From sequence record OR352935.1: a DNA stretch of 43,102 nucleotides, one strand, 5' to 3'. Position numbers and translations under genes: made by a program. The DNA is from Escherichia phage AV104. Positions 2,731-37,691 of this stretch are shown piece by piece. Each line of letters opens with the position of its first letter. The first letter of the stretch is position 1. The notes beneath the pieces are model-generated. The model searched no databases. It worked only from the letters and a program-made list of their open reading frames with translations, and was not told the DNA's origin.

Positions 2731-2766
2731 GTTCACATATAGCCCCGAAAGGGGCTTTCTTATAGT

Positions 2767-3843
2767 ATGCTATTAACTTTAACGCCACAGGGTTTATCTA
2801 TGAGCTTACTGACATCACTAATCAGCCACCAGATTTGGCTGCAACGCAACGCATCTGGCGAAGTGAAAGACCTCGCACCGTTCATTCAGGAGATGCGGGA
2901 TGAAATCAAACGGCAGGTGCTGTTGTTCGGCGACGACGGGAGAAGCACCGCGCGTCTCAATAAACTGTTACGCGACTTAGAAGAAGCACTGACAGGGCTA
3001 GCCGGAGACTGGCAAACAAAGCTGACCGAAGACCTTAAGGAACTGGCAGCGTATGAGGCTGAGTGGAATGTGAAAACACTCACGGCTAACGTCAACGCTG
3101 AATTTGTTACGCCTACCGCCGAACAGGTGTGGGCCGCTGCCGAGTTTCAGCCCTTATCATTAAGTGACAAGCCCGTTGATTTCGCCAAGCTGATGGATGG
3201 CTGGGGTGAAACGGAAGTCGCGCGCCTGGTAACCGGCGTTAAGATGGGCTTTGTCCAAGGCCAGACGACACGGCAGATTGTTAAGAATGTTGTTGGCGCT
3301 GGTGGGCTGGCGGACATCTCCGAGCGTAACGCAGCTACGGTAATCCGCACCGCGCTGTCGCACGTGTCCAACGAAGCACGTAACGAGACGTACCGTCAGA
3401 ACGACGACATCATCGAGAAGTACGAGTGGGTGTCAACGCTGGACAGCCGTACCAGTACGATTTGCAGAGCCAGAGACGGGATGACGTGGGAAATTGGTAA
3501 AGGGCCGATGCCCCCAGCCCATCCGAACTGCCGGTCGTGCACGGCTCCGGTAATCAGTTCCGAGTTCGACTTCCTGGATAAGGGCGCAAAACGAGCGGCT
3601 AAAGGAGCGGACGGCGGTACTCAGGTAAGCACGGACACCACCTATTACGAGTTCCTGGAACAGCAACCGGCATGGTTTCAGGATGAAGCACTCGGCCCGG
3701 TTCGCGGTAAGATTTTCCGCAACAGCGGTATATCGCCGGAAGAGTTTCGCGTAATATCTGTAGATGGTTTCGGGAATCCGCTCACGCTTAAGCAGATGGC
3801 GGAACTCGATAAACGTGTTGCTGATTATCTGAAAGGGGATTAA
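2767..3843 (+). CDS. head morphogenesis protein (Mu F-like / SPP1 gp7-like)
   Basis: 358 aa; conserved HPNCRSC motif (PAHPNCRSCTAPV) typical of the Mu F family; position after portal; start could be the in-frame ATG at 2800. Confidence 0.7.
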   Translation: MLLTLTPQGLSMSLLTSLISHQIWLQRNASGEVKDLAPFIQEMRDEIKRQVLLFGDDGRSTARLNKLLRDLEEALTGLAGDWQTKLTEDLKELAAYEAEWNVKTLTANVNAEFVTPTAEQVWAAAEFQPLSLSDKPVDFAKLMDGWGETEVARLVTGVKMGFVQGQTTRQIVKNVVGAGGLADISERNAATVIRTALSHVSNEARNETYRQNDDIIEKYEWVSTLDSRTSTICRARDGMTWEIGKGPMPPAHPNCRSCTAPVISSEFDFLDKGAKRAAKGADGGTQVSTDTTYYEFLEQQPAWFQDEALGPVRGKIFRNSGISPEEFRVISVDGFGNPLTLKQMAELDKRVADYLKGD

Positions 3844-4680: not shown

Positions 4681-4710
4681 TGAATAGTACCCTATTATAT
4701 CGGGGCATGT
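4681..4710 (-). promoter_or_regulatory. promoter/operator motif (TGAATAGTACCCTATTATA) for gene 4327-4641
   Basis: minus-strand reading gives TATAATAGGGTACTATTCA, the same motif found in front of the early genes. Confidence 0.4.
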
Positions 4711-4778
4711 AAACTATTTATTTACGTATTCCAGTTATTCCCCTCAATTGTAAATGTTGGAATAAACTATTCGAATAG

Positions 4779-4807
4779 TTGACTTTTCACTGAAAATATG
4801 CTAAGCT
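4779..4807 (+). promoter_or_regulatory. sigma70-like promoter (TTGACT-17 bp-TAAGCT with extended TG), copy 1
   Basis: TTGACT at 4779-4784, 17 bp spacer, TGcTAAGCT; near-identical to 35881-35909; preceded by perfect palindrome ACTATTCGAATAGT (4766-4779). Confidence 0.5.
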
Positions 4808-4814
4808 CCACCTG

Positions 4815-4925
4815 AGCTTGTGAAGTATGAACAAGCGACCGCGGCGCGGGCAGGTAACGGAGCGGGACGTAAGTCCTGAGTGTAGTTACGCTGACGCGTT
4901 CGGAAGGGCCATACTCTATTGCTTG
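4815..4925 (+). ncRNA. candidate structured RNA element, copy 1 (paralogue of 35917-36026)
   Basis: about 110 nt conserved between two loci with shared blocks (GCGACCGCGG, GAGTGTAGTT, TTCGGAAGGGCC) and differing but complementary hairpin arms; no ORF longer than 9 codons; downstream terminator at 4988-5016. Confidence 0.3.
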
Positions 4926-4987
4926 TGTAAAAAGTAACTGGTTTACTGAGATTACGCCGTTTCTATGTTTAAATGATAAGGCCTAGC

Positions 4988-5016
4988 GCCCCGCTTTATG
5001 GCGGGGCTTTACTTAT
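4988..5016 (+). terminator. rho-independent terminator
   Basis: GCCCCGC-TTTATG-GCGGGGC stem followed by TTTACTT, just upstream of the spanin RBS. Confidence 0.5.
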
Positions 5017-13735: not shown

Positions 13736-13768
13736 TGAATAGTACCCTATTATATTGGGGTGTGCAAG
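13736..13768 (-). promoter_or_regulatory. promoter of reverse island (TTGCAC-17-TACTAT containing TATAATAGGG motif)
   Basis: minus-strand reads CTTGCACACCCCAATATAATAGGGTACTATTCA, almost identical to the promoters at 36190 and 37632. Confidence 0.45.
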
Positions 13769-26509: not shown

Positions 26510-26824
26510 TTATAATTCCTTATATTGTTGGGGTATGTGCTTACTATAATAGTCTGCTATTAGGGTGTCAATCTGTTTTATCGAACCAACGACAAAAACA
26601 TTCGCGCCACGTTTACGCATCCGCTCGTGCTCGCGTAACTGGTGTGGGTCTGGCTTCGTGCTTTCATCTTTCTTAACCTCAACGAACCAGATGATGCCGC
26701 CGGGGAGGATTACCAACAGGTCGGGCGCTCCGTTTCGGCCCTCATACACTATCTTACGAACGAGGCCCCCCAGGGCCTCGAATCGGTCTTTCGCGTATTT
26801 CTGTACGCGGCCCTCTTTAGTCAT
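26510..26824 (-). CDS. VRR-NUC domain nuclease
   Basis: PD-(D/E)XK-like motif (GAPDLLVILPGGIIWFVEVKK ... HQLREHE); ATG at 26824 coupled to upstream tiny ORF (track start 26839 is TTG). Confidence 0.7.
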   Translation of the reverse strand: MTKEGRVQKYAKDRFEALGGLVRKIVYEGRNGAPDLLVILPGGIIWFVEVKKDESTKPDPHQLREHERMRKRGANVFVVGSIKQIDTLIADYYSKHIPQQYKEL

Positions 26825-30349: not shown

Positions 30350-30368
30350 TATAATAGCTAACTATTCA
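30350..30368. promoter_or_regulatory. promoter/operator motif TATAATAGCTAACTATTCA
   Basis: same quasi-palindromic motif as at the early promoters; lies upstream of gene 29662-30294 (minus). Confidence 0.35.
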
Positions 30369-32648: not shown

Positions 32649-32667
32649 TATAATAGCTAACTATTCA
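32649..32667. promoter_or_regulatory. promoter/operator motif TATAATAGCTAACTATTCA in divergent control region
   Basis: quasi-palindrome; on the minus strand followed by leader AAACGAGAGGAG and the ATG of gene 32616. Confidence 0.45.
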
Positions 32668-32694: not shown

Positions 32695-32716
32695 TTAATA
32701 TGGTACTATTCACATA
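32695..32716 (+). promoter_or_regulatory. promoter-like motif (TTAATATGGTACTATTCA) upstream of HTH gene
   Basis: degenerate copy of the early motif 25 nt upstream of the RBS of gene 32741. Confidence 0.35.
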
Positions 32717-32740
32717 TCAACTGACTAAGGAGTAACTGAC

Positions 32741-32956
32741 ATGCAACCATCTGAACTAGGCATCCGTGTAGAACAACGCCGCAAAGAACTAGGCATCTCT
32801 CAGCGCCGTCTGGCGGTTTTGGCTGGCGTTTCCCAGGGCGCGATTAACCAGCTAGCACTTGGAGTAACTCAGGACGTCCGCCCGGCGACGCTGTTTAAAC
32901 TGGCAGAAGTGCTGCAAGTAGACGCCAAGTGGCTGGCGTTTGGTGAAGGGGCTTAA
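32741..32956 (+). CDS. XRE-family HTH transcriptional regulator (Cro-like)
   Basis: 71 aa; LGISQRRLAVLAGVSQGAINQL helix-turn-helix signature. Confidence 0.8.
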   Translation: MQPSELGIRVEQRRKELGISQRRLAVLAGVSQGAINQLALGVTQDVRPATLFKLAEVLQVDAKWLAFGEGA

Positions 32957-32973: not shown

Positions 32974-35259
32974 CTATTCCAAATCCTCCTCTGTCACTGT
33001 CAGCAGATCATTCGGTTCATATATTGTCTTAGGAATCTTGTTGTCCGTTATCCTGGTGTTCAGCCTGTAGCGGCCAGGGATTATCTGATTGTTTTCGTCG
33101 GTTCCCGGCACAAGATACCCAGCCTCAACCATTTTCTTAATCTTCCCGCGTTCTATGGCTTCTTTGGAGTTAAACGCCTTTGCGTTGGGGTCTGACTGTG
33201 CGAGCTTATTCGCTGCAGCTACCGTGATACCTTCGCTGCCGTTGTAGGTTCCTTCTGCCAGTTCAAACGCTGCCAGTATCGTGGCCTCTGAACTGTTGAC
33301 GGCGTTCTCTACGGTTTTACGTACGTTTTCTTTACCTTCCTTTGTCAGACCTTCTTCACGCTCTTTCTCCTCGTCAGTCTTAAACGGCTCGAAGCCCCAC
33401 GGCATCAGTACAAGTGCCTTATGTGGTTCCGGCAGGTCGAGGTTTACGATTGTGCCGTATTCCTCTGTGTTACCGAGGAACTCAACCGCGCGGTATTCTT
33501 TCGGCGGCGGGGCTTCACGGAACTGTACGGACTCCAGAACCATACCGACAGTTTTCTGTTGGGGGCCGTGCTTAAATTTAGAGTGGTATACGTTTATCTG
33601 ACGGTCGGTAGCACGTTCGATTGTCAGTTCCACGTCGACACCCGCATACAGCGCCCCACTGCCACGGGCTTTCTTTCCGCCTTTCGGCGTATGGTGGACA
33701 ACGCCCACCGCGGCTTTAGTTGCGTCGCGTACTTTTTTAAGGATAGCGATGACTTTACCCATACCGATTGCTGTTGATGAACTATTCTCATCGAACTTAT
33801 CAATCGTCAGTGCCAGCGTCTGGTTGAGGGTATCAAACGCAATCATGCCGATTGGTTCTTCTCCTGCGGTTTCACGCATCATACGGATTAGCGCCGTAAG
33901 TTTTTTATCCTCTCGCATGCCGAGTATTTCTGTCATATCGATGACGTGTACATAATCTTTACCTTCCACGCCGTATTTAGCCGCGAGCGCGTCGATACGT
34001 GTACGTGTGGCTGCGCCACCCTCACCGTCAACATAGAAATGGTGACAACGCTGGGTGTCCGCCCCCGCAAACCGGTACCCGGCGGCGCTGAGGTACATCA
34101 TCCCCAGCGTATAGAAAGATTTGTACGTGCCAGATTCCCCGACAATATCCCAGATGCAATCAGAAGGCATGTACCCTTCTACGACGAAATCAGCCTTTAC
34201 CGGTTCCAGTAACTCGTCCTCCTCTGAGCCATCATCGTCTTCCAGGTCGTCGAGGCTGCATGAGACAGATTCACGCGCGCCCCAGCCGATAGCCTCGGCC
34301 ACTTCACTGAACGGCAACCCGGTCGCATCACACGCGTATTTCCACACCTCTTTCGGTGACATGCCTTCGGTTGCCGTAATGTCGGTGTCGTGAATCATGG
34401 TTACGTTCGGCGCTTCGTAGCCCTCGCGCGGGAAGCACAGCAGGAAGTCATCCGGGCGCGGCGTCGGGTCACTGTAGTTCTCCGCGTGTTCTGGTGTGGC
34501 GGGCATCTTAAGGCCGCGCGGCGTCATGATGCCACCGTACTCAAACGCCAGTGCTTCAAACGCATCCGTAAACGCGGTGCGTAGTTCTTCCGGTATCTGG
34601 TAATCCGATGCACTGCTAACGTCAACGGCTGGTACACCTTCCAGTAACTCTTCCGGGTCAATCAGGTCGTTACGGCGCGACCAGATAACGGTAGAGCCAA
34701 CCGGCGGCAGGTACATCGGTTGCGACAGAGTGAACCCGCTGCGGTCAGCGCCCATACCTTTGAAGAAGTGCTCCAGCAATCCGTGACGAACGCGGATGAT
34801 GTCACCACCTTCAACCGGACGCCCCAGCGGCATGACGACGCGAAAGCGCGGGGACTCATCGGCATGTGATGCTGTGGTGTAGAGGCACATCGCCTGGCGG
34901 CTGCGTTTAACCAGTTGCACCGCTTCCTGATACTCTTCCGTCGTTGCGCTGTCGAAGTCCAGATACGCCAGTGACGATTTGCTTACAGACGCGTCACAGC
35001 GATAGAAGAAGCCTTTACGCGCTTGCTTAAAGTCACCGGTTTCCGGGTCTTTTACGGTGCTGTGCGTCGAGTCGCACGCGGCAGTGATATAGCCCGGTGC
35101 GGTCTTCGGATTAATTCCGTCTCGAACGGCATCGAGCGGCTGGAGTAGCTCTTTCAGGTCGCCCAGTGTCGCCGTGTGTGTTGTTCTGACGTTTATATCC
35201 TTTTTCTCCGCCCGCGCGTTGCGACGTGACCACGAGTAGGATAAAATTACATCGGACAT
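32974..35259 (-). CDS. DNA primase/helicase (RecA-like ATPase domain)
   Basis: 761 aa; Walker A-like GESGTYKS with downstream acidic motifs; large N-terminal domain; position in the replication operon. Confidence 0.6.
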   Translation of the reverse strand: MSDVILSYSWSRRNARAEKKDINVRTTHTATLGDLKELLQPLDAVRDGINPKTAPGYITAACDSTHSTVKDPETGDFKQARKGFFYRCDASVSKSSLAYLDFDSATTEEYQEAVQLVKRSRQAMCLYTTASHADESPRFRVVMPLGRPVEGGDIIRVRHGLLEHFFKGMGADRSGFTLSQPMYLPPVGSTVIWSRRNDLIDPEELLEGVPAVDVSSASDYQIPEELRTAFTDAFEALAFEYGGIMTPRGLKMPATPEHAENYSDPTPRPDDFLLCFPREGYEAPNVTMIHDTDITATEGMSPKEVWKYACDATGLPFSEVAEAIGWGARESVSCSLDDLEDDDGSEEDELLEPVKADFVVEGYMPSDCIWDIVGESGTYKSFYTLGMMYLSAAGYRFAGADTQRCHHFYVDGEGGAATRTRIDALAAKYGVEGKDYVHVIDMTEILGMREDKKLTALIRMMRETAGEEPIGMIAFDTLNQTLALTIDKFDENSSSTAIGMGKVIAILKKVRDATKAAVGVVHHTPKGGKKARGSGALYAGVDVELTIERATDRQINVYHSKFKHGPQQKTVGMVLESVQFREAPPPKEYRAVEFLGNTEEYGTIVNLDLPEPHKALVLMPWGFEPFKTDEEKEREEGLTKEGKENVRKTVENAVNSSEATILAAFELAEGTYNGSEGITVAAANKLAQSDPNAKAFNSKEAIERGKIKKMVEAGYLVPGTDENNQIIPGRYRLNTRITDNKIPKTIYEPNDLLTVTEEDLE

Positions 35260-35317
35260 GTTGTATTTCCTTCAGCAAGTAATTTGGCCTCGGCGTTCAC
35301 CGCGTCGGGGCTTTCTT

Positions 35318-35608
35318 TTATCTATTAGCCAGACATTCCATCAAATGCGCGTACTTACGATAATAATCTACGACAATCTCATCACCGAAATACTGATAAA
35401 CGTACGCTAAGTGGTCAGAGACATCGATGGAAGCCGACATTGTGCTGAGTCTTCGGAGACTAATCAACTGTAATTCTTCTGTAACGCAAAACGGTGAATA
35501 AGAGTCCAGCTTACAAGAAACGTTAAAGCACAACGCATATTCGCCTTGCACTAAATAAACCATATAAGCACTGTCATTTTCTTTATCGTGGAAAATTACA
35601 CCTTTCAT
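35318..35608 (-). CDS. hypothetical protein
   Basis: 96 aa ORF. Confidence 0.4.
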   Translation of the reverse strand: MKGVIFHDKENDSAYMVYLVQGEYALCFNVSCKLDSYSPFCVTEELQLISLRRLSTMSASIDVSDHLAYVYQYFGDEIVVDYYRKYAHLMECLANR

Positions 35609-35775
35609 TTCACGTTCTCCTTAATCCACGCCTCAACTTTATTACGGTCAAATGTACCAGGTAAACGGCGACCCATTACTTTAACGCTGCAATCAGGAAA
35701 CTTTCCACTCTTAATCCAGTTATTGATTGTCTGGCGGGTGACTCCGATTAATTCTGCAACTTCATTGATAGTCAT
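35605..35775 (-). CDS. AlpA/Xis-like HTH DNA-binding protein
   Basis: MTINEVAELIGVTRQTINNWIKSGKFP matches the AlpA-type HTH pattern; ATG at 35775 with AGGAG RBS (track start further upstream is less likely). Confidence 0.6.
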   Translation of the reverse strand: MTINEVAELIGVTRQTINNWIKSGKFPDCSVKVMGRRLPGTFDRNKVEAWIKENVK

Positions 35776-35815
35776 TTCGCGCTCTCCTGTGTAAGATGTA
35801 TCGAAGTATAAGGCG

Positions 35816-35855
35816 GTAACTTTGTAAAAGCAACCAAAACTGAACACAAAGTTAC
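35816..35855. repeat. 10-bp perfect inverted repeat GTAACTTTGT / ACAAAGTTAC separated by 20 bp
   Basis: read directly; lies between divergent promoters (AlpA-like operon leftward, RNA element rightward). Confidence 0.6.
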
Positions 35856-35880
35856 TAAGATACAAAAGATGCTACTGGTA

Positions 35881-35909
35881 TTGACTTTTACTTAAAAATA
35901 TGCTAAGCT
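35881..35909 (+). promoter_or_regulatory. sigma70-like promoter (TTGACT-17 bp-TAAGCT with extended TG), copy 2
   Basis: near-identical to 4779-4807. Confidence 0.5.
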
Positions 35910-35916
35910 TCACTGA

Positions 35917-36026
35917 GCTTGTGAGATATCGCAAGCGACCGCGGAGCGGCAGGGAACGCAACGCGTGCCATTAGGCACTTGAGTGTAGTTCCGCTGGCGC
36001 TTTCGGAAGGGCCAAAGTCTATTGTT
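35917..36026 (+). ncRNA. candidate structured RNA element, copy 2
   Basis: paralogue of 4815-4925 with compensatory hairpin (GUGCC-AUUA-GGCAC here versus GGGAC-GUAA-GUCCU in copy 1); followed by a large hairpin at 36091-36150. Confidence 0.3.
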
Positions 36027-36090
36027 AATCCCGCCTAAATACCCAAGTCACTGATAATTAAAAGTTTCTATAGTTGCCGTAAGCAAGGTG

Positions 36091-36150
36091 GAGAGTACTT
36101 CACTCCGCTGGGGTGGGCTAACGCCCACCCACTGCGTTGCGTACTCTTTT
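36091..36150 (+). terminator. complex hairpin / possible terminator
   Basis: GGGTGGGC-TAAC-GCCCACCC inner stem, outer GAGAGTAC/GTACTCTT pairing, then TTTT. Confidence 0.35.
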
Positions 36151-36189
36151 AAGAAACGAAAGAATCACAACGGCAACGTAACTTTTCTC

Positions 36190-36218
36190 TTGCACACCCC
36201 AACATAATAGGATACTAT
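36190..36218 (+). promoter_or_regulatory. early promoter (TTGCAC-17-TACTAT, spacer contains CATAATAGG)
   Basis: conserved with 37632-37660 and minus-strand 13736-13768; followed by conserved leader TTATCGAAACGAGA..GAGGAG. Confidence 0.45.
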
Positions 36219-36252
36219 TCACTTATCGAAACGAGACAGAGGAGTGAGGGTT

Positions 36253-36447
36253 ATGTTTAAACGTGGTCAGTTGGCTAAAACGAAGCGAGGCGAACAGTAC
36301 GTAATAGTGTTGCAGGACGAGAACGAGTATGACGAGGATAAGCTGGTTGACGTATGGGGTCTGGTAAGAAAGAAACCCGGGTTCGCCTTACGCGATAATC
36401 TGAAACTCATCGGCAACAATTTTAAATTCAAAGGGGATAACACGTGA
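36253..36447 (+). CDS. hypothetical early protein
   Basis: ORF with GGAG RBS; first gene after the early promoter. Confidence 0.45.
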   Translation: MFKRGQLAKTKRGEQYVIVLQDENEYDEDKLVDVWGLVRKKPGFALRDNLKLIGNNFKFKGDNT

Positions 36448-36701
36448 TGGAAGAACTAATTTGTATTGAATCCAGCCAGGATGTGCAGGATTGGTTTGTT
36501 AAAGGTAACAGATATTCGTCCGGAGTATATTCCGACGGCCGTCGATATGTTTTAGACGAAGACGGTGATGAATGGGATTTAAATGACGATGTAAGAGAAA
36601 CTTTAACCGTTAGCAGGGTCAATGCTGTTTCTGCCTCATTCACAACGGCATCGAATCATGATGCTCGTGCCGACGACTCTGAGGGAGGTTGCCGTGAATA
36701 A
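36444..36701 (+). CDS. acidic hypothetical early protein
   Basis: 85 aa, Asp/Glu-rich; ATGA coupling. Confidence 0.45.
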   Translation: MMEELICIESSQDVQDWFVKGNRYSSGVYSDGRRYVLDEDGDEWDLNDDVRETLTVSRVNAVSASFTTASNHDARADDSEGGCRE

Positions 36702-36749
36702 TTACCCGTTTATTTTAATAGTCAGCGCCGTTTATGTGGTGCATGCGTT

Positions 36750-36983
36750 ATGGGGGCTGGTATGAGAAAACACATAATAAAGGTAGACCATCTGGACGGA
36801 GTTAAATTGCCGACGAATAAAGTAGAAACGTGGTGTGGGGCCACTCCATCGTACGGTGAATGGCTGTTCCAGGATGCTCAACACGCCTTAATTGCTGTAG
36901 AAAACGGATTCAGGCAAGAGCCTTGCGCACAGTGTTTATCCGCTATCGCCCAGATCGCAACTCAGGCGTTAAGTGAGGACTAA
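36750..36983 (+). CDS. hypothetical protein
   Basis: 77 aa ORF. Confidence 0.4.
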   Translation: MGAGMRKHIIKVDHLDGVKLPTNKVETWCGATPSYGEWLFQDAQHALIAVENGFRQEPCAQCLSAIAQIATQALSED

Positions 36984-36986
36984 GTT

Positions 36987-37130
36987 ATGAGAGAAGCATT
37001 CGAACGGTGGGCCGTCGTCGAGGGTCTGCCGGTTAACAAGGGTTCGAAGAAAGAGTACCTGAACGTTAAGACGCGTCTCGCGTGGCGGGCGTGGAAAGCT
37101 GGTGTGTTGTTTATCGCGAATCGGAGGTGA
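36987..37130 (+). CDS. small hypothetical protein (47 aa)
   Basis: ATG at 36987; fills gap; Trp/Arg-rich. Confidence 0.3.
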   Translation: MREAFERWAVVEGLPVNKGSKKEYLNVKTRLAWRAWKAGVLFIANRR

Positions 37131-37631: not shown

Positions 37632-37660
37632 TTGCACACACAGATATAATAGACTACTAT
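37632..37660 (+). promoter_or_regulatory. early promoter (TTGCAC-17-TACTAT, spacer contains TATAATAG)
   Basis: same architecture and leader (GTTATCGAAACGAGAGGAG) as 36190-36243. Confidence 0.45.
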
Positions 37661-37691
37661 TCAGTTATCGAAACGAGAGGAGAGAGAGAAG

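Follow-up and report, generated by a model that had tools for sequence, protein, structure and literature searches.

Introduction

A 10-bp sequence and its exact inverted copy lie between two divergently transcribed units of Escherichia phage AV104, and the question raised by this locus is whether the symmetry marks a conserved regulatory site or is a dispensable by-product of sequence change. The window analyzed here, 43,102 nt long (sequence record OR352935.1), is the complete genome of a lytic siphophage of Kagunavirus (Guernseyvirinae) with structural, lysis, and replication genes present. An earlier note on this DNA, made from the letters alone, described a long perfect palindrome between the leftward operon of an AlpA-like HTH gene and the rightward promoter of an RNA cassette, and read it either as the binding site of a dimeric regulator spanning two helical turns or as an RNA stem. 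A literature search found no description of this region, its promoters, or its RNAs. RNA-seq of another Kagunavirus, K1B4, revealed only four early genes, one of them the homologue of the HTH gene; the primase-helicase (AAA domain) was assigned to the middle genes (PMC12645636).

Results

Genomic neighborhood of the repeat

The HTH_17 gene (Table 1) is the first of a leftward operon and is followed on the minus strand by a 96-aa ORF and a 761-aa replicative primase-helicase. To the right of the repeat, 478 nt without an ORF precede a series of small rightward ORFs. The best Pfam match of the HTH protein was HTH_17 (PF12728; 40.6 bits, E = 3e-10) and the Phage_AlpA model was not among its Pfam matches at E ≤ 0.01. 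Weak matches to the MerR_1 and MerR models and a marginal one to the nearest solved structure, 4j2n (E = 0.08), were also recorded. The PHROG match was phrog_66, "excisionase and transcriptional regulator", a label also given to the HTH_17 protein by several depositors.

Over the repeat region, the window was 94% identical to vB_EcoS-phiEc4, and its non-coding stretch was 99.8% identical to that of Kagunavirus LM08P1. Across 35800-35862, which includes the palindrome, LM08P1 and LM08P2 do not differ from the window. A satellite or island origin (AlpA plus primase, P4-like or PICI-like) was considered and rejected, as the window is a complete Kagunavirus genome without a match in E. coli chromosomes; a search of 5,426 E. 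coli genomes with the repeat region gave no match, even with the threshold relaxed to E ≤ 1. A single PLSDB entry, CP088689.1 (44,086 bp, filed as a non-mobilizable E. coli plasmid from blood), matched the intergenic query at 87% over 95% of its length. Its length is that of a Kagunavirus genome, and the deposited plasmid probably represents a phage, possibly one present in the bacterial culture.

Table 1. Positions of the repeat, its neighbors, and related elements (window coordinates unless a locus is named).
Feature	Position	Strand	Remarks
HTH_17 (excisionase-like) gene	35605..35775	-	56 aa; first gene of the leftward operon
P_L -10 hexamer TATACT	35805..35810	-	predicted; start near 35798, 23-nt leader to the HTH ATG
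Left arm GTAACTTTGT	35816..35825		within the 17-bp P_L spacer, at about -18 to -27 relative to the predicted start of P_L
Gap between arms	35826..35845		20 bp; holds the P_L -35 hexamer; read directly off the sequence
P_L -35 hexamer TTGCTT	35828..35833	-	predicted; 17-nt spacing kept across classes
Hypervariable hexamer	35840..35845		at least 7 variants: CTGAAC, CACCAC, CAACAC, CCGAAC, CGCCAC, CACCGC, CACTAC
Right arm ACAAAGTTAC	35846..35855		at about -48 to -57 relative to the predicted start of P_L, and -61 to -70 relative to that of P_R
Conserved block CAAAGTTACTAAGATACAAAAGATGCTACTGGTA	35847..35880		upstream of the P_R -35; nearly invariant and at a fixed distance to P_R in classes A, B, and D
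P_R	35881..35909	+	predicted; TTGACT (35881-86), 17 nt, TGc-TAAGCT extended -10 (35904-09)
Structured RNA from P_R	35916..36024	+	does not include the palindrome; no Rfam match
TTGCAC..ATAATAGGnTACTATTCA sites	4681-4698(-), 13736-13753(-), 26546-26563, 30351-30368, 32650-32667, 32695-32712, 36204-36221, 37646-37663, also 2759-2776		
Class D dyad	locus L113 (GZMU_E2010), about 822-858; also L041, L055, L061		
Jersey-type palindrome	locus L114 (vB_SenS-Ent2), 805-819; also L143, L157, L178, L187, L213		

An interrupted inverted repeat at chance frequency genome-wide

The two 10-bp inverted copies, 20 nt apart, were found exactly as previously described: GTAACTTTGT (35816-35825) and ACAAAGTTAC (35846-35855) are reverse complements at 10/10 positions. 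The term "long perfect palindrome" holds for the arms and fails for the whole, which is an interrupted inverted repeat (40 bp overall) and not a continuous palindrome. Its location between the leftward HTH operon and the rightward RNA promoter was also given correctly; more precisely, the repeat overlaps the leftward promoter. The centers of the arms are 30 bp apart, which corresponds to approximately 2.9 (about three) helical turns and does not agree with a dimeric regulator bound across two turns. The gap carries two A4 tracts (35826-29 and 35836-39) spaced by 10 bp, and the right arm forms the distal end of the conserved block upstream of P_R.

In the whole 43.1-kb window, two perfect inverted repeats with 10-nt arms and spacers of 0–40 nt were counted versus 1.94 ± 1.7 expected under a Markov-1 model; hence, repeats of such size occur at the chance level genome-wide. 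For the 478-nt non-coding region 35776-36253, a frame picked after the fact, about 2% of random sequences hold such a repeat (p about 0.02). When the half-site GTAACTTTGT was searched for with at most one mismatch, both arms proved to be its sole occurrences in the genome (2.9 expected). The single-stranded repeat folded with -10.9 kcal/mol on the plus strand (z = -2.7 versus shuffles) and -12.6 kcal/mol on the minus strand (z = -3.2).

The repeat overlaps a predicted leftward promoter

Syntenic loci were gathered via the HTH protein, a conserved anchor just upstream of the P_R -35, and annotated phage records, and the promoter-region comparison set comprised 25 distinct haplotypes. Most matches from the metagenome scan for further loci were due to chance, and few haplotypes were gained from it. 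The relatives are referred to below by class, the window belonging to class A.

A strict consensus promoter scanner reported no promoters in the region, so the assignments of P_L and P_R rest on the comparison between relatives. The P_L candidate (TTGCTT-N17-TATACT) ties on raw score with a few other leftward candidates, and it alone keeps its hexamers and the 17-nt spacing in relatives with unrelated spacers. The hexamers are TTGCTT/TATACT in classes A and B, TTGCTT with TATCTT or TATATT in class D, TTGATT/TATACT in class C, a Klebsiella phage, and the Jersey-type Salmonella phages, and TTGTGT/TATAGT in K1G; the spacing of 17 nt is common to six promoter classes despite the unrelated spacers. 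P_R scored highest of all promoter candidates in the region; transcription from it is predicted to begin near 35916, and an identical promoter precedes the second copy of the RNA element at 4779 (4779-4921). P_L is predicted to drive the HTH_17 gene and P_R the structured RNA. The inverted repeat overlaps the predicted core promoter P_L in such a way that the left arm falls within the spacer and the -35 hexamer lies between the arms.

Among class A haplotypes, the 17-bp spacer with the left arm has one variable column in 17 versus about 9 of 30 in the adjacent leader. The hexamer 35840-35845, located inside the gap, is hypervariable, whereas the leftward -35 region on one side of it and the right-arm block on the other are invariant, the surroundings being 90–100% identical. 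This juxtaposition of a hypervariable hexamer with conserved flanks suggests that two separately constrained elements abut there.

The left arm is confined to one class of relatives

The complete dyad was detected only in class A, i.e., in nine of the 25 haplotypes with the window included. The left arm is intact in all nine (9/9) and is missing from classes B, B', C, D, K1G, and the Jersey-type. The isolated phages that share the right-hand module gave a corresponding picture: 11 of 38 cover both arms, and in the remaining 27 the left arm is not fully covered, 26 of them aligning only from position 35823 (inside the left arm) and phage Ivi from 35813. In classes A, B, and D, CAAAGTTAC is invariant in 24/25 haplotypes. 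Two class A haplotypes have defects in the right arm, both uncompensated. In one of them, the right arm reads GCAAAGTTAC, the change of its first base from A to G removing the innermost pair, and in the other the arm is disrupted by an ACAAAG-CAC indel.

The most informative relatives were the 13 class B haplotypes, in which the HTH protein is 89% identical, the P_L hexamers, P_R, and the RNA are the same, and the right arm is invariant. Their HTH protein has a 4-aa N-terminal extension, MQHY, which is not a separate small ORF before the promoter. The class B spacer, GGATAGCGG(G/T)AATGTAA (in the sequence form GGATAGCGGGAATGTAA), has no left arm, and no replacement inverted repeat of at least 7 bp was found in classes B, B', or C. 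With the same HTH gene, hexamers, P_R, and RNA retained and the left arm absent, class B speaks at the sequence level against both functional readings of the earlier note, as do the 27 of 38 phages without a full left arm. The HTH protein of class A differs from those of B, C, K1G, and Jersey-type phages by the residues I3, I21, and S30; because these are derived residues, class A can be regarded as a derived lineage.

RNA stem, terminator, and origin readings

It is very unlikely that the repeat forms a hairpin near the 5' end of a leftward RNA starting to the right of P_L, serving as a 5' stabilizer or a regulatory stem. The minus-strand folding energy given above would suit such a role, and weak leftward promoter candidates, for example CTCACA-N17-CATATT and TTTTAA-N17-TAGCAT, were noticed upstream of the repeat; however, the repeat lies upstream of the inferred starts of both conserved promoters, and transcripts containing it would have to come from such weak candidates. 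In class C and the Jersey-type phages, the homologous motif is itself transcribed, near the 5' end of the rightward RNA, where a GTAACTT copy further downstream could pair with it. The AV104 stem itself is missing in class B, is not followed by a U-tract, and with its 20-nt loop makes a marginal hairpin without Rfam family matches. Furthermore, no base pair changed on both sides when 20 haplotypes of classes A and B were compared, and covariation between the arms scored 0.086, not above the shuffles (500/500). The position upstream of both predicted starts and the lack of compensatory changes speak against the RNA-stem reading.

The Rfam search gave no hit at the gathering score over the window and only noise at E ≤ 10 for 35780-36260. 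An intrinsic terminator was rejected as well, the terminator scan having found none; the stem is A/T-rich, the loop has 20 nt, and there is no T-run on either strand.

A structural DNA element of a replication origin (a hairpin, a cruciform, or a loading site) was considered with regard to the adjoining primase-helicase operon, the global minimum of the cumulative GC-skew at ~35-36 kb, and the A/T-rich character of the region (GC 0.455 for 35001-37000), and we judge it highly improbable. The skew minimum falls where gene orientation changes from leftward to rightward and is confounded by this change, hence it cannot by itself indicate an origin. Neither iterons nor repeat arrays were detected, and relatives with the same replication genes have not kept the dyad. 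A loop of 20 nt disfavors cruciform extrusion.

A proposed recent perfecting of a quasi-palindrome

The best explanation of these data, to which we give about an even chance, is that the repeat arose by recent, lineage-specific perfecting of a quasi-palindrome straddling the junction of two promoter modules. Close relatives have the same genes but only one of the arms, so the symmetry probably arose lately as a by-product that the phage can do without, and is not a conserved regulatory site. In the gapped alignment, class A AGTATA-AG---GCGGTAACTTTGTAAAAGC stands against AGTATA-GGATAGCGGTAA---TGTAAAAGC of Ivi, and the relatives carry the quasi-palindrome GTAA-TGT or GGAA-TGT opposite ACAAAGTTAC. 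A net insertion of CTT in class A, together with a G to T change, would have completed the complementarity of the arms, and the loss of 3 nt beside the -10 hexamer would have restored the 17-bp P_L spacer. Such a course is what one would expect of templated (strand-switch) correction of the quasi-palindrome followed by selection on promoter spacing. The dyad would then have no required function and would provide, at most, a second site for whatever factor binds the right-arm motif; an extra site in the spacer would get in the way of RNA polymerase at the -35 and spacer of P_L.

Mutations that correct quasi-palindromes by template switching have been described for E. coli and for phage T4. The AV104 case resembles it in that the repeat is imperfect in relatives and a multi-base change (+CTT, G to T) perfects the arms, but the left modules differ elsewhere too, a compensating 3-nt loss is needed for the 17-bp spacer, and the mechanism is one that we infer. 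The account of a single-step CTT insertion is a simplification; the left modules of classes A and B differ at many leader positions as well. Selection for symmetry would yield the same pattern as templated correction.

The arms belong to separately assorting modules

The window and Ivi have an identical right part, including the variable hexamer CTGAAC, and different left modules. Conversely, in the B' phages (e.g., Bas71) the left module is that of class B, but the rightward promoter and RNA are of another type and do not contain the motif. These two combinations demonstrate that the arms sit in two separately assorting modules, with the dyad spanning the junction. The left module consists of P_L with the HTH gene and the right one of P_R with the RNA, the recombination junction being placed at ~35823-35835.

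In the slot 35836-36190, which separates P_L from the first rightward ORF, and its equivalents in loci L009, L022, L042, L114, and L240, at least four unrelated promoter-plus-RNA cassettes were observed. The alternative cassettes, those of classes A/B/D, B', C/Jersey, and K1G, have shared flanks, so the slot is a hotspot of modular exchange. An inversion linking the 5' RNA segment of class C to the right-arm block of classes A/B (15/16 match in the opposite orientation) was considered as well; it is plausible and not provable, since the core AGTWACT is itself palindromic.

Class D, composed of GZMU_E2010 and two metagenomic relatives, has a 47-aa CxxC zinc-ribbon-like protein and a 149-aa protein in place of the HTH_17 gene and the 96-aa ORF. 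The right-arm motif was retained in 3/3 class D haplotypes, 10 bp nearer the leftward -35. As the complete genome of GZMU_E2010 has no HTH_17 homologue and keeps the motif, the latter is independent of HTH_17. What the relatives have kept is the right-arm motif CAAAGTTACTAAGATA and the pairs of promoter hexamers with their constant spacing; the dyad as such is not maintained.

Related dyads and a possible split operator

Other dyads were found at the same leftward promoter. In class D, TTGAAGTACC-N9-GGTACTTCAA flanks the -10 hexamer, with arms of 14 bp in GZMU_E2010; the hexamer is in the loop, which varies yet stays -10-like. K1G has CAATAG-N11-CTATTG, i.e., 6-bp arms around its -35. The Jersey-type Salmonella phages carry a compact palindrome of the same half-sites, GTAACTT-C-AAGTTAC, ~8-22 nt downstream of the rightward promoter TTGACA-N17-TAAGTT, and a third GTAACTT copy ~110 nt beyond, which could pair with the palindrome in the RNA. 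In the window, the copies at 35816 (+), 35855 (-), and 36178 (+) follow the same order and orientation. The class A and class D dyads are each single-copy in their own genomes. By a rough estimate, two independent perfect dyads of at least 10 bp within ~60 bp of one promoter in five module classes would arise by chance in about a few cases in ten thousand. Such recurrence of dyads at P_L argues for selection and against the by-product reading, to which the low variability of the class A spacer and the low chance probability within the non-coding region are likewise unfavorable.

The repeat might accordingly be read as a split operator, bound at both arms by a dimeric or tetrameric regulator of phage or host origin on the same face of a bent, A-tract-rich gap, which we consider possible but doubtful. 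Binding of this kind would clamp the leftward -35, shut P_L off, and maybe affect P_R 60-70 bp away, a consequence that we put forward just as tentatively. The geometry is suggestive in part: the -35 hexamer is bracketed by the arms, one of which lies in the spacer, and the A4 tracts of the gap are phased 10 bp apart, but a center spacing of 30 bp with perfect 10-bp arms is atypical for small HTH dimers and would need a tetramer or bending. The local chance probability of about 0.02 for the non-coding region and the independent dyads of class D and K1G at the same promoter, together with the compact Jersey-type arrangement of the half-site, are in favor of an operator, whereas the half-site is not reused at any other promoter of the genome. 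The HTH gene behind P_L is an early gene and must later be shut off (PMC12645636), and the HTH substitutions specific to class A co-occur with its specific left arm. Nevertheless, class B manages the same regulators and promoters without the left arm, and the two class A haplotypes mentioned above tolerate uncompensated arm defects.

Candidates for the regulator are HTH_17, the XRE-like HTH_3 protein, further early phage proteins, and factors of the host. HTH_17 is a 56-aa excisionase-like fold without a dimerization domain, its excisionase-like relatives (lambda Xis, P2 Cox, and 186 Apl) bind direct repeats, and the class D genome deprived of HTH_17 retains the right-arm motif. The XRE-like protein has a more conventional candidate site, AATAG-N4-CTATT, with at least nine sites, two of them upstream of its own gene. 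We know of no convincing fit of the arms to the consensus sequences of IHF, Fis, CRP, OmpR, CpxR, TyrR, GntR, or RcsB.

The cores GTWACTT and AGTWACT showed modest enrichment in non-coding DNA. A genome-wide operator built on them was rejected, as the sites outside the two RNA-cassette regions look unrelated, one of them being an RBS context. The IMG/VR scan for the compact Jersey palindrome pattern returned mostly unrelated loci, with Guernseyvirinae accounting for 5/120.

A structured RNA and other repeated elements next to the repeat

The element downstream of P_R behaved differently from the arms. Within it, 96% of cells were paired versus 27–48% with slid partners, four pairs had compensatory changes, and the covariation score was 0.236 versus 0.124 for the shuffled alignments (0/500). 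The element is a genuine structured RNA.

Two copies, 80% identical, of the strong sigma-70 promoter (TTGACT-N17-TGcTAAGCT) with the ~115-nt RNA are present in the window, at 35881-36024 and 4779-4921. Each copy is followed by a terminator-like hairpin (~36085-36152 for copy 1 and ~4987-5012 for copy 2) and then by ORFs. The RNA copy near the structural genes was found across Guernseyvirinae, including Salmonella phages, and the early-region copy is specific to classes A, B, and D. This two-copy RNA may act as a leader or as a put-like antiterminator, or it may be a small RNA that is abundant early in infection.

Another repeated element, the promoter-like TTGCAC..ATAATAGGnTACTATTCA with the internal dyad AATAG-N4-CTATT, lies directly upstream of gene starts at most of its sites (Table 1). 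Two AATAG-N4-CTATT copies directly precede the XRE-like HTH_3 gene (about 32733-32948). The element is the reverse complement of the "phage promoter" consensus obtained with PHIRE for Kagunavirus fBC-Eco01 (PMC9825357), although no RNA polymerase is encoded by these phages. It is probably a middle/late promoter with an operator, and AATAG-N4-CTATT is a better candidate for a repeated regulator site than the repeat at 35816-35855. A perfect 14-bp palindrome, ACTATTCGAATAGT, was also noticed at 4766-4779, where it abuts the -35 hexamer of the promoter of the second RNA copy and shares the first base of that hexamer. Both arms consist of the CTATT/AATAG motif, arranged the opposite way from the AATAG-N4-CTATT dyad.

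Discussion

The AV104 repeat resembles the OR and OL regions of lambda and P22 in being an inverted repeat over a core promoter in a divergent early region with small HTH genes nearby. Classical operators of this kind measure 14–20 bp, are present as multiple copies, and are retained alongside their repressor, whereas here single-copy 10-bp arms are separated by 20 bp, and relatives in which the regulators are retained lack one of the arms. The adjacent 56-aa HTH_17 excisionase-like protein brings to mind the sites of lambda Xis, P2 Cox, 186 Apl, and AlpA. These proteins bind direct-repeat arrays as monomers or filaments, in contrast to the two inverted copies seen here, the right one of which persists in a phage without HTH_17. 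MerR-type promoters come close in that the HTH protein weakly matches MerR_1/MerR and the spacer between -35 and -10 contains one of the two arms. However, MerR-type dyads are placed inside a spacer of 19–20 bp; the P_L spacer has the optimal 17 bp, the second arm is upstream of the -35, and the 56-aa HTH protein has neither a coiled-coil nor an effector domain. Inverted repeats associated with promoters are commonplace, and no evidence points to a conserved function of the present one.

A broader hypothesis, rather unlikely in our view, is that GTAACTT/AAGTTAC (core AGTWACT) might be the recognition element of some regulator, of phage or host origin, which coordinates the divergent early promoters and the exchangeable RNA cassettes across Guernseyvirinae. 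If true, the same half-sites would have been rearranged in each lineage, as a compact palindrome downstream of the promoter in the Jersey-type phages, as a single upstream copy in classes B and D, and as a split pair on the leftward -35 in AV104, and they would form a natural series of operator rewiring around one factor. Classes A and B, which differ essentially by the left arm, are a natural pair for testing the effect of the dyad.

The more interesting biology adjoins the palindrome, namely the two-copy covarying RNA and the dyad-bearing promoter-like element at no fewer than nine gene starts. Altogether, the analysis offers the first sequence-based map of the early control region in Kagunavirus, phages that are widely isolated for therapy, with two divergent sigma-70 promoters predicted on the basis of comparison across relatives and the junction at which the left and right modules meet.
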